Shown here: in pieces, positions 113 to 36,062 of the stretch
Layout of the letters: each line of letters starts with the position of its first letter
Position numbering within the stretch: position 1 is the stretch's first letter
Assembly: GCA_019894975.1 (NCBI GenBank)
Contig: JAGXNO010000023.1
Coordinates: 1 to 56,566, forward strand
DNA: 56,566 nucleotides
Source: Promethearchaeota archaeon
GTDB taxonomy: Archaea > Asgardarchaeota > Lokiarchaeia > Sigyniarchaeales > SOKP01
Direction of reading: 5' to 3'
Notes under the pieces: generated by a model
Database searches by the model: none
Seen by the model: only the letters and a program-made list of their open reading frames with translations
What the model was told of the DNA's origin: nothing
Position numbers and translations under genes: made by a program

Positions 113-254
113 TATCTAGAAATCTAATTTTTGTCTTTTGGTAGTGTGCTTCGGTGCACTTTAAAAATTTACCTTCTTCTTATTGAATGGATTTGACCAT
201 GTAATTTGGTCGCACTGGTAGGAGTCGCCTTTTATCTTAGATATTATTTTTTTT
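113..254 (+). ncRNA. Candidate structured ncRNA, copy 1 (AUUUUUGUCUUUUGGU motif, cUUCGg hairpin, second two-part hairpin); ends approximate
   Basis: 127-147 is identical to the reverse complement of 35378-35398. Stems: 143-149/154-160, 177-185/216-224, 195-199/207-211. BRE/TATA-like GAAAAGTATATTA at ~78-90; T-tract at ~247-254. Confidence 0.65.
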
Positions 255-2987: not shown

Positions 2988-3716
2988 ATGCTGCAAGTTA
3001 ATCAAGATGTAATTAGAATTTTTGATTTTGACTACTTAATTTTTGATATTATTCTCTTATTCTTATTCATATCTATTCTGATTATACAAAGAAAATATGT
3101 CCCGCTTTTAGTTGGTATCTTATGTGGAATATTGTTTTTAATAATAGATGGCATGATTTGGTGGAATACGGGAATTCGAGAGATATATCCCACTAACTTA
3201 AAAGTAGCAGTTGATTTTATGATGGATTTTAGTTATGGATTGTTAGCTTTTAGTTGGGTAATGATTATGTTTGAAAAGAATAATATGAAAGAGATTATCT
3301 TTTGGACTGCTTTGTTATATGGAGGTTGGTTTATGATTGCTACCTTATCTCAAATCTTACCCTTGACTGATATTGAAATTACTACGATAAGACATATGAA
3401 GCACCTAAGAATAGTTGAAATTTCAGTCGTAGTTTTTGGCTATTTACTTTTATTGTTTTTGGGATATAAGTATAAAGCGATACTCTTTATCTTTTGGGTG
3501 GGAACTATGCTTTCTTTCATGATGGAATCATATTTGCTTTTTACAGGAATCAGGTCTTCTGGCTTTGAATTGTTATTATATGATTCTCTAATTTTAACGA
3601 ATCAAGGGATTCCATATTTATATATTATTTTTGATAAAATTCTCCCAAAATTAAGGGAAATGATTAAGAATCGAAAGAACGCAAAGGAAGAGATTGTTGA
3701 GATTACTCACACTTAA
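2988..3716 (+). CDS. Multi-pass membrane protein, unknown function
   Basis: About 7 hydrophobic segments. Confidence 0.75.
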   Translation: MLQVNQDVIRIFDFDYLIFDIILLFLFISILIIQRKYVPLLVGILCGILFLIIDGMIWWNTGIREIYPTNLKVAVDFMMDFSYGLLAFSWVMIMFEKNNMKEIIFWTALLYGGWFMIATLSQILPLTDIEITTIRHMKHLRIVEISVVVFGYLLLLFLGYKYKAILFIFWVGTMLSFMMESYLLFTGIRSSGFELLLYDSLILTNQGIPYLYIIFDKILPKLREMIKNRKNAKEEIVEITHT

Positions 3717-3826
3717 TAAAGATAAAAGATATTCTTTAGTTTTTGAATGAAATCAATAGTTACTTCTTATTTATCTTTAGAATGGTAAATTTTATGTGGT
3801 AGCAGAAATATACTTTACAAAGTGAA

Positions 3827-32402: not shown

Positions 32403-34154
32403 TTACTCTTGGAATTTTTCTAGAAGTTCCTCAATTTCTGCCTGAATAACTTCGGGTTTCTTTGCCGTTTTACCCTTTATCGCGAGTTGCCTCTCTATAA
32501 TTGGTCTGTGGAGCGTGTTCATGGCACAGAAAGGGATCTCCCGAACTTTAGTAGGGTCATCAGGATCTATGACTCCGTAATGGACAAGACAGCTACATAC
32601 TCTGTCAAGATCGAAGTTGTAAGCATCTTGGAAATGCATACTTGATATGAGTAAATTACGTGTATGTAGGAAATTTGCGGCAGAGTTAAAGTTTGGGTTC
32701 ATTACCAATCTAGCAAACCCTTGATAAGTTTTGCTGGTTAGGATTTTTCCAGGTTCTTTAATAAAGCGTGCTGCACCTGCGAAGTAGTACGCCTTTATAA
32801 TTTGACGATATCCTAAATCAGTCATGTCATCCACGAACTCTCCGATTTTTGAGAAAATTGGACCAAGATCGTTTAGGTTTATACCCTTTAGCAGCCCTGT
32901 AGGCTTAGGAACTTCACGCTCTTGAACCATATCCCATACTTTGTTCGACCATTTGATTAATCCAGTGACATCGAAGTAATCCTCGAGGGCTTCCCACTCT
33001 CCCTTGTCGTTGATTATTATTATTGAGCAAAAGCCGCAGTCCTGATGACTTGTCATGCTAAACGCGGGCATTTCGTCAAACCAAGCAAGTAATTGAGTCA
33101 TTTTGGCTGTAGTTGCGATAGGATAAAATTGACCGATTGCTCCATTCGTATGTTTATTTATTGCTTCTTTAAGATCAGAAGTGGTATATCTAATATCCAT
33201 TAATTCTTCGAAGCTGATACGACCTGTTAATGATACAGGCTGGAATATAACACCAGAAACAACATCAGAATTATCCCTAGCATAATCTAAAATATTTCCG
33301 ACTTGATTATCATTTATCCCTTTAGCGATAACTGGGACTAACACAATTCCAAAAAATCTAGCTTTTCGGGCGTTTTCTATAACTCTCTTTTTAAGAGGCC
33401 AAAGGTTCACACCTCGTATTTTTTTCCAGACCTCAGGAGCATCAGTTGCATCAAATTGTAAATAAATCGCATTCATTCCTGCTTCCTGGCATTTTTTAAG
33501 GAATTCGGGTTCTTTACCAAATCTAACACCATTAGTCGTTACCATTAATTCAGTAAATCCTAGTTCCTTTCCTTTTCGAATGATATCGGGGAGATCATCT
33601 CTAACAGTAGGTTCTCCGCCTGATAATTGGAGTAATACAGCAGGAACAGGCTTCATTGATCGAAAATGTTCCATTATTTGTACAATTTGATCAAATGAAG
33701 GTTCTACTATATATCCTTTAGCACTTGCGTTGGCAAAACAAATAGGACATGTAAGATTGCATCGATTAGTAATGTCTATTAAGCAAATATTTGGGGCGCT
33801 TTTGTGATTGGAACAAAGTCCACAATCATAAGGACACCCTTTATTAACTTCTTTAATTCCCGATGAGACAGATTCTGGTTTTGTAGTTGTATTTACAGTA
33901 GATCCTATGCTTGTTGTGAATCCTTGTTGCCATTTGTAATCTTCGGGATTAATTGATAACTTATCTTTAAATTCTCCATGATCTTTACAATTCTTTACCA
34001 TCATAACCCAGTTTGTTTCTGGATCAACTACGATATCAGCGGGAATGTGCTTCATACACTCAGGGCAGAGAGAAGTTGTCTTCCTAATTATCTCACCGTA
34101 TTGTTTCTTTTCCTTTTTATTAGTTTGAGTCTCAAGCTCAGTCATAAACATCAA
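32403..34154 (-). CDS. tes: Tetraether lipid synthase (Tes / GDGT-MAS, MJ0619-like) radical SAM enzyme
   Basis: SLCPEC..C..HG N-terminal metal site, CPYDCGLC..H, CNLTCPICFA, C-terminal MHFQDAYNFDLDRVCSCLVHY...IPFCAMN. Confidence 0.85.
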   Translation of the reverse strand: MMFMTELETQTNKKEKKQYGEIIRKTTSLCPECMKHIPADIVVDPETNWVMMVKNCKDHGEFKDKLSINPEDYKWQQGFTTSIGSTVNTTTKPESVSSGIKEVNKGCPYDCGLCSNHKSAPNICLIDITNRCNLTCPICFANASAKGYIVEPSFDQIVQIMEHFRSMKPVPAVLLQLSGGEPTVRDDLPDIIRKGKELGFTELMVTTNGVRFGKEPEFLKKCQEAGMNAIYLQFDATDAPEVWKKIRGVNLWPLKKRVIENARKARFFGIVLVPVIAKGINDNQVGNILDYARDNSDVVSGVIFQPVSLTGRISFEELMDIRYTTSDLKEAINKHTNGAIGQFYPIATTAKMTQLLAWFDEMPAFSMTSHQDCGFCSIIIINDKGEWEALEDYFDVTGLIKWSNKVWDMVQEREVPKPTGLLKGINLNDLGPIFSKIGEFVDDMTDLGYRQIIKAYYFAGAARFIKEPGKILTSKTYQGFARLVMNPNFNSAANFLHTRNLLISSMHFQDAYNFDLDRVCSCLVHYGVIDPDDPTKVREIPFCAMNTLHRPIIERQLAIKGKTAKKPEVIQAEIEELLEKFQE

Positions 34155-34168
34155 TATATGTTTTGAAA

Positions 34169-34215
34169 TTTAATTAAATTAATGTTTTAATTAAATAATG
34201 TTTTAATTAAACATT
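34169..34215. promoter_or_regulatory. Triple palindromic TTTAATTAAA array upstream of tes
   Basis: TTTAATTAAA at 34169, 34186 and 34202; the last two lie in a direct repeat of TAATGTTTTAATTAAA. Confidence 0.45.
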
Positions 34216-34290
34216 GGAATCTTTTAAATTTTATAGTATTATTGATAGTATCTATAGTATTATTAAAAAAACTCCAAATTTTTAATAACA

Positions 34291-34415
34291 CTAGATATTT
34301 TCCCCCTATTTTTGATATTTTTGTAAACTCTCTTGCAAAGGGCAAAGTGCCTTTGCCTTTTTTCCTTGAAGATTTCTATAATCTTCAGCTAAAAGAGAAT
34401 ATAGAGAATATCTAG
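34291..34415 (+). ncRNA. Candidate multi-branched structured RNA
   Basis: 12-bp closing stem 34291-34302/34404-34415 encloses hairpins 34335-34356 and 34367-34387 and tandem AUUUUUG motifs. Confidence 0.5.
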
Positions 34416-34570
34416 AGCAACAAGGTTGGTTAATTTAAAGACCGATTATTAGGTTTATATTAAATTATTTTTTCAATAGAGGGTAGAAATATATAAATAT
34501 TAAAGGCTTTTAATTAAATGACAGAAATATCACAAAAGATAAAAGAGTTTTAAATTAAACTATAAGGGTA

Positions 34571-35107
34571 ATGGATATGGACAAAGAAAAAGACGATAAA
34601 GGAAATATTTTATTAGCAGATTCTTATGAAACACATATTACTGCCTTGCAGTATATAGAGAATAAGAAAGAAATTAGGGAAGAAGTCTATAAAGATACTA
34701 CTTTATGGGGGAATAAATTAGGAAATGATTTCTTGTTTGATATTGTTAACCTCTTAAAATGGGAATTGGATGAATTATCACATCCGGATCCAGCTTATCA
34801 AGAACATAAGTTCATCAGAGTTAGCAGTTTATTAAGAAATTTTAAATCTGAACTTCGGGAAAAAGGAGACTTGGAAGAAGCCCTTAACGACTATATAGAG
34901 GAATTAAACGAATTTAGGTTCACCACGTCAAGAGAAGGTTCTTATCCTGGAGCACCTGAAATAGACATCCCGATCACAGCCGAACAAATCAAGGAAAGAC
35001 TGTATGATATACGTCGATTTAAAATTGAGGTATATAAGAGTGCTCTAGAAGAGTACAAGAAGAACAAAGAAGAATATAATCATTTCATAGATATTCCAGA
35101 CGTTTAA
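34571..35107 (+). CDS. Hypothetical acidic, helical protein
   Basis: 178-aa ORF, no recognised motif. Confidence 0.7.
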   Translation: MDMDKEKDDKGNILLADSYETHITALQYIENKKEIREEVYKDTTLWGNKLGNDFLFDIVNLLKWELDELSHPDPAYQEHKFIRVSSLLRNFKSELREKGDLEEALNDYIEELNEFRFTTSREGSYPGAPEIDIPITAEQIKERLYDIRRFKIEVYKSALEEYKKNKEEYNHFIDIPDV

Positions 35108-35257
35108 ATAAGAATTTTTTTTAAATTTGTTACCTTCCATTTTTGTAAGAGCCAGTTTGTTTTTTTCTGTTACTTGATAAATATTTATGACTAAAGTTTT
35201 ATTAGCTTAACCATTTCACTATCTTTCTGTTAAATCTTACTTTTGCATGAAGTTCTC

Positions 35258-35420
35258 TAAAAAATCTCTTAAGAGAATCTCCGAAAACGAAGAAGGTAGA
35301 GCCCCCTGCCAACGGACGCAATATTAGCGTCAAAAAATACAATAGGGGGAGGAGGGCGAAATCAGAGTGTAAAATTTACACTACCAAAAGACAAAAATCC
35401 AGGGTGTAGGCAGGAGGCAT
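35258..35420 (-). ncRNA. Candidate structured ncRNA, copy 2 (homolog of 113-254); ends approximate
   Basis: Same 21-nt motif and same order of stems, with compensatory changes; locally GC-rich; T-tract follows on the minus strand (~35259-35264). Confidence 0.65.
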
Positions 35421-35663
35421 ATTAGGTTTAATTTTTTTTGATTTTTTGATCTATTGTATTTTAATAATTTAATTTGTGATGTATTTTTATAAATTATGGT
35501 ACAATTTTCATCCTAAAGATAGTATATGTTTAGGCGTTTATAAATAAAATTAATGGTGGTTACAATTTCCCATTCAATTAAATAATAATTATAGTTAATA
35601 TTATTAATTCTATAGAGTATTATTCAAGTTATATGGTTAAAAAACTGTCTTTTTGATTTTATA

Positions 35664-36062
35664 ATGATGAGTGACAATAAAGAACAGACGGTAGGAAGAC
35701 CAGAACCAGAATTTAAATTTACAATTTTCACGGTAATATGGATTATAATAGGTTTTATTGCCTCCTGGATAAATATGTTAGTTATTTTAGATACGATGCA
35801 AATTTGGTCATATTTAAGCGTAATATTTACAACTATCATTCCTGGAGTTATCATTGGATTAAAAGATAGATATTGGGGATATGGGTATATGGGGGGTTTT
35901 GCGATTGCGGGTATTCCTTTTTCCTTCTTCAAAGATTCTCATGGTTATCTATTTGTTGGCTGGTATACATTCGCAACAGCCCTTTTTATATTTATTATCA
36001 TCATGCTTATTTTTTGGACAGCATGGAGATCGATTTCTGCAATTAAACGAGTAGAAGATTGA
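35664..36062 (+). CDS. Small membrane protein (~4 TM)
   Basis: Hydrophobic segments. Confidence 0.75.
   Translation: MMSDNKEQTVGRPEPEFKFTIFTVIWIIIGFIASWINMLVILDTMQIWSYLSVIFTTIIPGVIIGLKDRYWGYGYMGGFAIAGIPFSFFKDSHGYLFVGWYTFATALFIFIIIMLIFWTAWRSISAIKRVED

Follow-up and report, generated by a model that had tools for sequence, protein, structure and literature searches.

Small RNAs bound by Sm, Lsm or Hfq proteins, namely the Sm-class snRNAs, the archaeal SmAP-associated sRNAs and the bacterial Hfq sRNAs, are among the described molecules that come closest to the RNA reported here: the length is ~120-170 nt, an A-U5-G tract stands single-stranded between helices, the terminal stem runs out into a U-tail, and a separate exposed pyrimidine-rich stretch might base-pair. 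The Y RNAs, which associate with Ro60, and the bacterial Y-like RNAs are comparable as well, with ~100-120 nt, a long end-to-end stem whose outer part is conserved, an internal pyrimidine-rich region and a 3' U-tail. The bacterial sRNAs of the RsaE/RoxS type use C-rich tracts against the Shine-Dalgarno (SD) sequence, and such C-runs (CCUCC, the anti-SD core of the 16S tail) are exposed by the commonest paralogue of our RNA. Finally, the orphan classes raiA, OLE and HEARO were, before their functions were known, in a similar position: defined by covariation and conservation, lineage-restricted, without a partner and uncatalogued. Beyond the universal ones, very few structured non-coding RNAs of Asgard archaea are known to us.

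The RNA was found in a contig of a Promethearchaeota archaeon (JAGXNO010000023.1; 56,566 nucleotides, all of which were analysed and are called the window below). However, it departs from each of these systems. Measured against the Sm-site criterion R-A-U(3-6)-G-R, it has G-A-U5-G-U, invariant and unpaired between helices P1 and P2, with the last position a U and not a purine; binding of such a protein is here only proposed, and an invariance over 20 nt exceeds by far what Sm or Hfq sites require. The Y RNAs, with which Rfam gives no match, have nothing that corresponds to the internal hairpins and the invariant strand, and the TROVE/Ro gene (PF05731) was not found in this genome, which is 95% complete. 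Unlike the RsaE/RoxS type, other paralogues of the RNA do not have CCUCC, and in many members the tract is paired to a leader or to inserted hairpins. The 16S rRNA of a relative ends in GGAUCACCUCCA; only ~18% of the ORFs here have an SD-like 4-mer, versus 8% in shuffled sequence, and SD use looks modest. In comparison with raiA, OLE and HEARO the RNA is smaller, archaeal, and multi-copy with diversified paralogues.

Fold and identity of the RNA family

The initial annotation had noticed an exact 21-mer at 127-147 on the plus strand that returns at 35398-35378 on the minus strand, and the recurrence stands, with none expected by chance in shuffles. The same genome has a third exact copy, on contig C125, and the whole family has hundreds of members, where a two-copy family had been described. 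Of the three copies in the genome copy 1 is truncated, and copies 2 and 3 are intact (the features of copies 1 and 2 are collected in Table 1). In copies 2 and 3, a segment of 13 nt situated 3-5 nt upstream of the conserved block is complementary to a purine-rich 3' segment, and with this 5' arm their folds reach z = -5.2 and -6.05, versus -2.6 and -1.6 without it.

Table 1. Features of copies 1 and 2 of the RNA in the window
Feature	Position	Strand	Remarks
Copy 1, 5'-truncated copy of the RNA	127..236	+	covariance model (CM) match of 53.9 bits; alignment to full-length relatives
Copy 1, retained part of the invariant U-rich single strand	127..142	+	
Copy 1, P2 hairpin	143..160	+	7 bp, UUCG loop
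Copy 1, P2a	140-142 with 171-173	+	3-bp base of P2
Copy 1, P3 hairpin	195..211	+	5 bp, 7-nt loop
Copy 1, orphan P1 3' arm	215..226	+	partnerless in copy 1; followed by GCC and the T-tract 230-233
Copy 2, intact member including the 5' leader arm	35284..35462	-	CM core 35420-35292
Copy 2, leader arm	35451..35462	-	12 nt; perfect complement of J2/3 at 35334-35345 (35462-35451 with 35345-35334, 12 bp)
Copy 2, P1 5' arm	35406..35418	-	pairs with 35301-35313; fold z -5.2
Copy 2, invariant single strand J1/2	35383..35404	-	
Copy 2, P2 hairpin	35366..35382	-	
Copy 2, pyrimidine-rich J2/3	35332..35354	-	CCUCC inside; 3' half 35334-35345 pairs with the leader arm
Copy 2, P3 hairpin	35315..35331	-	
Copy 2, P1 3' arm	35301..35313	-	T-tract at 35284-35287

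The intact RNA has ~125-170 bases and is built, from 5' to 3', of P1 (13 bp), the U-rich strand CCUGGAUUUUUGUCUUUUGG, P2 on a 3-bp base, the joining strand J2/3, P3, the trinucleotide NCC and a short T-tract. On an alignment of 36 diverse members (A3), made with MAFFT independently of the covariance model, the helices were written as P1 of 13 bp, P2a of 3 bp (GGU with RCC), P2 of 7 bp and P3 of 5 bp; in some members the inner part of P1 is preceded by a 1-nt bulge. In A3, 95.1% of the cells are paired and 20 of the 28 pairs change on both sides; no shuffle out of 500 is as good, and partners slid along the alignment pair in 34-51% of the cells. The covariance model R1 realigned 106 matches, 104 of them distinct, and in this alignment, which is fitted to the model, 95.1% of the cells are paired, 26 of the 28 pairs are compensatory and the double-change cells number 530 versus 121 in shuffles. 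The 20 column pairs with the highest mutual information are all pairs of the model. For the intact genes the fold is shown by this covariation among aligned sequences.

Two stems of the initial annotation, its hairpin A and its inner 5-bp stem, are real and correspond to P2 and P3, both of which covary across the family. Its outer stem B is spurious: in the 36 sequences only 66.7% of its cells are paired, 83 of 500 shuffles are as good and sliding the partner changes little. The 3' arm of stem B in fact pairs with a 5' arm that had not been seen, that of P1, so that the boundaries and the architecture had to be redrawn with P1 as the terminal stem and with copy 1 no longer as a full member. 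The strand was assigned correctly, since the helices contain 85 G-U against 13 A-C combinations (61 against 12 without a near-invariant pair), and this fixes the strand.

The consensus of the 104 sequences contains CCUGGAUUUUUGUCUUUUGGU, each position at 90% or more, and the start of P2, the CCCUA core of J2/3 and the U-run before P3 are conserved as well. The invariant unpaired U-rich stretch measures 20-22 nt; to our knowledge it is among the longest invariant single strands outside rRNA and tRNA. P1 keeps the sequence of its outer 7 bp, while its inner pairs are free to covary. P1 is followed by NCC (ACC in 32 members, UCC in 24) and then by the short T-tract, whose presence downstream had been noted before; TTT occurs in 82 of 101 tails versus 61 of 101 in a control window. 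Some members are expanded: L042 and L121 have an additional hairpin after P2, and in L087, L116 and L125 the C-rich tract is interrupted by an insertion of ~30 nt whose G-run pairs with the C-run.

The conserved block might also be read as coding. A frame of 14 codons begins with an AUG at the P1 5' end and ends in P2; copies 2 and 3, like many relatives, have it open. A leaderless micro-protein is nevertheless hardly credible, because the AUG is present in only 60 of the 104 distinct members, the frames span anything between 4 and 39 codons, the invariant 21-mer falls into two different reading frames, 28 members have a 1-nt insertion inside it, and the conservation acts at the nucleotide level, with covarying helices.

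Upstream of the copies no sharp promoter signal is found at a fixed distance, the region being merely A-rich. An A/T-rich motif (GATAAAAATTTAAA-like) precedes 18 of 98 copies, 29-117 nt from the leader arm, and occurs in control regions too. The BRE/TATA-like promoter that had been placed ~25 nt upstream of the 21-mer is not confirmed; in intact copies this position is inside the RNA.

The initial annotation did not recognise the family, and the searches agree with it. Over the whole window Rfam 15 returns no match at the gathering score; at E<=10 the three loci return 7 weak matches, none of which overlaps the element. ARAGORN finds neither tRNA nor tmRNA, and the full-text literature search gave nothing on this RNA. 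We conclude that the RNA family is undescribed, lying outside Rfam and the literature searched.

Several known classes were tried and rejected individually. A tRNA-like fold does not fit, with a P3 loop that is not a T-loop and a continuous P1 of 13 bp; a tRNA-like D-arm, and a SECIS element on the opposite strand, were dropped after inspection of the alignment. For box C/D there is no C box, and CUGA occurs in one paralogue class only; for H/ACA the tail is NCC and not ACA. In a K-turn reading the would-be 1n adenine covaries as a Watson-Crick pair (pair 48-68 in the 36-sequence alignment, 54-123 in that of 104). The element has no match either to RF00001, the 5S rRNA (a fold of helices I-V with sequence motifs in loops C and E). 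At E<=0.001, RF00001 is matched in 9 of 55 genomes, all at least 90% complete, of the Lokiarchaeal family in which the RNA occurs (f1), versus 5 of 5 in its sister family, and is not matched in this genome. The f1 relatives have 5S genes apart from the element; these are AT-rich, show the loop C and loop E motifs and score 25-32 bits against the RF00001 gathering score of 38 (L203-L206, in G023, G022, G065 and G005). Therefore the element is not a substitute for 5S, and standard annotation will miss the 5S genes of f1.

Distribution and genomic neighbourhood

A search of Asgard genomes with a covariance model had been suggested by the initial annotation, and in the matches to R1 the pairings are kept to the extent given above. 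In an order-wide draw the RNA is present in 123 of 131 f1 genomes (~94%) and in 12 of 13 genera, in 2 of 14 genomes of the sister family f2, both belonging to genus g8, and in none of 5 genomes of two further families of the order. In a phylum-wide draw all 25 f1 genomes have it, and the 125 genomes of 26 other families give 1 weak match (26 bits). Thus, the RNA family is confined to one Lokiarchaeal (Promethearchaeota) family and one neighbouring genus and is essentially absent elsewhere in the phylum; it is therefore not an ancestor-like universal RNA. Genomes of f1 carry 1-18 copies, usually 2-4. Of 24 genomes of the genus, 23 contain an 18-mer core, and the 20-mer CCTGGATTTTTGTCTTTTGG occurs in more than 120 stretches of public genomes, nearly all of them labelled Promethearchaeota or Promethearchaeia. 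The g8 copies are divergent: they do not have CCCUGG and keep the U-tract, the context of P2, GAUUUCGCC, P3, P1 and an ACCUUU tail.

Among 2.9 million viral contigs there is 1 match. This sole IMG/VR match, L238 (IMGVR_UViG_3300029288_000001, 107-126), is a divergent copy at the extreme end of a 225-kb contig classified as viral, which may be a misclassified Asgard fragment. The motif is also seen on contigs binned as Patescibacteria or Saccharibacteria (L109, JANBVM010000030.1; L083, CAZNER010000049.1). L109 holds two full copies of the Lokiarchaeal RNA and is therefore probably a mis-binned Asgard contig.

The genes around family members have mixed orientations. About 70% of the copies have a same-strand gene downstream and about 30% face a convergent one; the median distance to the next ORF is ~260 nt, across an AT-rich spacer. 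One paralogue, in 28-29 loci, sits between a divergent gene for a small 4-TM protein and a same-strand downstream radical-SAM gene, a lipid gene (tetraether-synthase-like) with an HMPTM zinc ribbon. The neighbours of copy 2 match those of this paralogue: they lie at 35664-36062 (+) and 32403-34154 (-), and the product of the former, of 132 aa with about four predicted membrane helices, is 53% identical to the cluster representative and has no Pfam family; as the divergent neighbour of the RNA it is conserved in ~29 genomes. Copy 2 thus shares its strand with the downstream radical-SAM gene, and the claim that the element is antisense to both flanking ORFs fails for this copy and does not describe the family. 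A Ski2-like helicase, an HhH protein and small proteins without a Pfam match recur as neighbours too; no integrase or transposase is among the recurrent neighbours.

The spacer between copy 2 and its radical-SAM gene (window 34155-35291) is ~1.1 kb long versus ~0.3-0.5 kb in most relatives. It contains an ORF of 178 aa at 34571-35107 (+) without a Pfam match, which may be an insertion or a spurious ORF.

These surroundings bear on a cis-acting role, in which the RNA would be a leader or riboswitch: its three-way junction would sense a ligand or a protein, and P1 with the U-tract would terminate transcription and so control the downstream gene. The build is aptamer-like, with a closing P1, covarying helices and invariant joining strands, the T-tract comes directly after P1, a same-strand gene follows the majority of the copies, and 28 copies are located 270-530 nt upstream of the same-strand radical-SAM gene. 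However, about 30% of the copies face a convergent gene, the downstream genes are otherwise unrelated (helicase, small proteins of no known kind), and the next ORF typically begins only beyond the AT-rich spacer. In addition, one genome has tandem copies, and the divergent g8 copies are not beside the lipid gene. We therefore regard a riboswitch as unlikely.

Copy 1 and the mobile-element reading

Homology of copy 1 to the family begins exactly at AUUUUUG, and in the alignment the P1 5' arm and CCCUGG are absent. The copy scores 53.9 bits with the covariance model versus 124.8 and 111 bits for the intact copies, and its P1 pairs are flagged as non-standard in the match. A 12-mer complementary to the orphan P1 3' arm is absent from the whole assembly. 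The closest relatives of copy 1 are the full-length genes L152, L113 and L089, and their 5' arm matches the orphan 3' arm of copy 1.

Copy 1, which is 117 nt from the contig end, adjoins the gene of an AMP-binding enzyme. Orthologues of this gene are 73-85% identical in 6 relatives, and at none of these 6 orthologous loci is there an RNA copy beside it; the DNA homology to them stops at about window 265, just beyond the T-tracts of copy 1. Copy 1 is hence at a rearrangement or insertion boundary, as evidenced from the loci without the copy and from the end of the homology. Since it has no P1 5' arm and sits at this synteny break, it is truncated, and it is probably defunct. We are highly confident of the combined statement that the RNA genes form a genuine structured-RNA family and that copy 1 is a truncated member of it.

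A reversed defect is seen in L017 (G011:C64:37600-37691), a 3'-truncated copy that covers model positions 13-111 and has no P1 3' arm. In G129, contig C14 (~3373-3784 and 149087-149498; L230, L232) carries an 870-bp block twice, in direct orientation, 146 kb apart and with 82% identity. Each block holds two tandem RNA genes at a distance of 288 nt; the two blocks may have arisen by an old duplication or mark the borders of an island.

Truncated copies such as these, the position of copy 1 at a synteny break, the variable copy number, several copies near contig ends and the duplicated two-copy block of that one genome would suit a mobile or recombination element of DNA, either MITE-like with terminal inverted repeats or an attachment site, whose helices would be features of the DNA; P1 is formally a 13-bp terminal inverted repeat. 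We find this very unlikely. The arms covary rather than being conserved, and only one strand tolerates G-U. The copies within a genome are divergent paralogues with ~74% column identity, not near-identical repeats, and orthologues keep their synteny across genera, so that a MITE or intergenic repeat was rejected. The initial annotation had named target-site duplications among the signs of a MITE, and none is visible at the ends. The single match among the viral contigs and the lack of a recurrent integrase or transposase neighbour point the same way. If the RNA genes served as an integration target, as tRNA genes do, this would not conflict with the main explanation, a stand-alone gene for a structured RNA.

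Leader pairing and proposed mode of action

Many members have, upstream of P1, a leader segment that is a perfect complement of the 3' half of J2/3. Within 600 nt upstream, 20 of 98 members contain a stretch able to form at least 10 uninterrupted Watson-Crick pairs with J2/3, versus 1 of 98 downstream, and the arms mostly begin 23-42 nt before P1. The distance from arm to P1 varies, and the helix was judged by statistics of cognate versus non-cognate sequences: in 130-nt windows a 10-bp complementarity occurs in 20% of cognate and 2.6% of non-cognate comparisons and in 5% of the reversed-sequence control. Leader arm and J2/3 change together in several distinct compensating variants, copy 2 included, and in one paralogue class the complementarity spans ~30 nt. 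There are also variants in which the C-run of J2/3 has an inserted local G-run as its partner instead. No more than a fifth to a third of the members show a clear leader arm.

From this leader or local pairing we infer that J2/3 tends to be held in a helix, and that the primary transcript has to begin 5' of the leader arm. Counting this arm, many members would form a pseudoknotted RNA of ~160-170 nt, as predicted from the complementarity of the two strands.

The resulting order of strands (leader, P1-5', P2, J2/3, P3, P1-3') is that of the nested double pseudoknot of HDV-like ribozymes. In those ribozymes P1 has 7 bp, P3 with L3/P1.1 has 3 bp, and J4/2 contains a conserved catalytic C. The topology follows from the fold and the leader pairing, and a self-cleaving or self-processing ribozyme could be imagined on this basis. 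However, it is highly improbable, and we place it slightly behind the mobile element. Compared with such ribozymes, the RNA has much longer helices (leader helix of 10-14 bp, P2 of 7 bp on its 3-bp base) and much larger joining strands, and the strand of 2-3 nt between P3 and P1-3', where the catalytic C would be placed, is variable. Rfam scans give no HDV-type family, and many members do not have the leader arm on which the likeness depends.

We favour, with somewhat better than even confidence, a stand-alone gene for a small structured RNA, most likely the RNA of a ribonucleoprotein (RNP); the readings as cis-regulator, mobile DNA, ribozyme or coding sequence come after it.

We suggest the following mode of action. 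The RNA would act in trans. The invariant U-rich strand, with A-U5-G and then a second U-run, would be the docking site of a conserved protein, for which the Sm-like archaeal proteins are the best candidates. The paralogue-specific J2/3 would be the base-pairing module, and in many copies the RNA's own leader would mask it. This scheme of a trans-acting RNP RNA with a docking U-tract and a maskable pairing module is tentative, and our confidence in it is low.

In favour of protein docking, the strand is unpaired, invariant across paralogues and composed of two U-runs, the first of which is A-U5-G. No sites complementary to it beyond chance were found in this genome, which counts against a base-pairing role of the invariant strand. 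LSM-domain genes are present in all these genomes, at 3-6 per genome and mostly 3-4. Their count has no clean correlation with the presence of the RNA, being 3-4 almost everywhere, including genomes without it; the LSM genes are thus necessary for the proposed mechanism, but permissive only, and they do not discriminate. For J2/3 no trans target stood out in this genome: the exact complementary 11- and 12-mers are its own antisense and matches at chance level, and one 14-nt match within a coding region of contig C141 is about what chance would give. The 16S and 23S genes are missing from this genome and from two single-contig relatives, save a 16S 3' fragment.

A bolder version takes A-U5-G as a true Sm site. 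The RNAs would then belong to small RNPs of the Asgard lineage bound by an Sm ring, a prokaryotic counterpart of the Sm-class snRNP architecture, with J2/3 masked by the leader until the particle matures. We consider this a long shot, a little less probable than the riboswitch; if true, it would bear on the origin of Sm RNPs.

With the covariance model, hundreds of 'empty' islands rich in GC can now be annotated in these AT-rich genomes, and together with the RNA as a bait the model provides a handle for finding the protein partner. The level of constraint, with the RNA kept in nearly all f1 genomes and its paralogues diversified, implies an important role in the cell.
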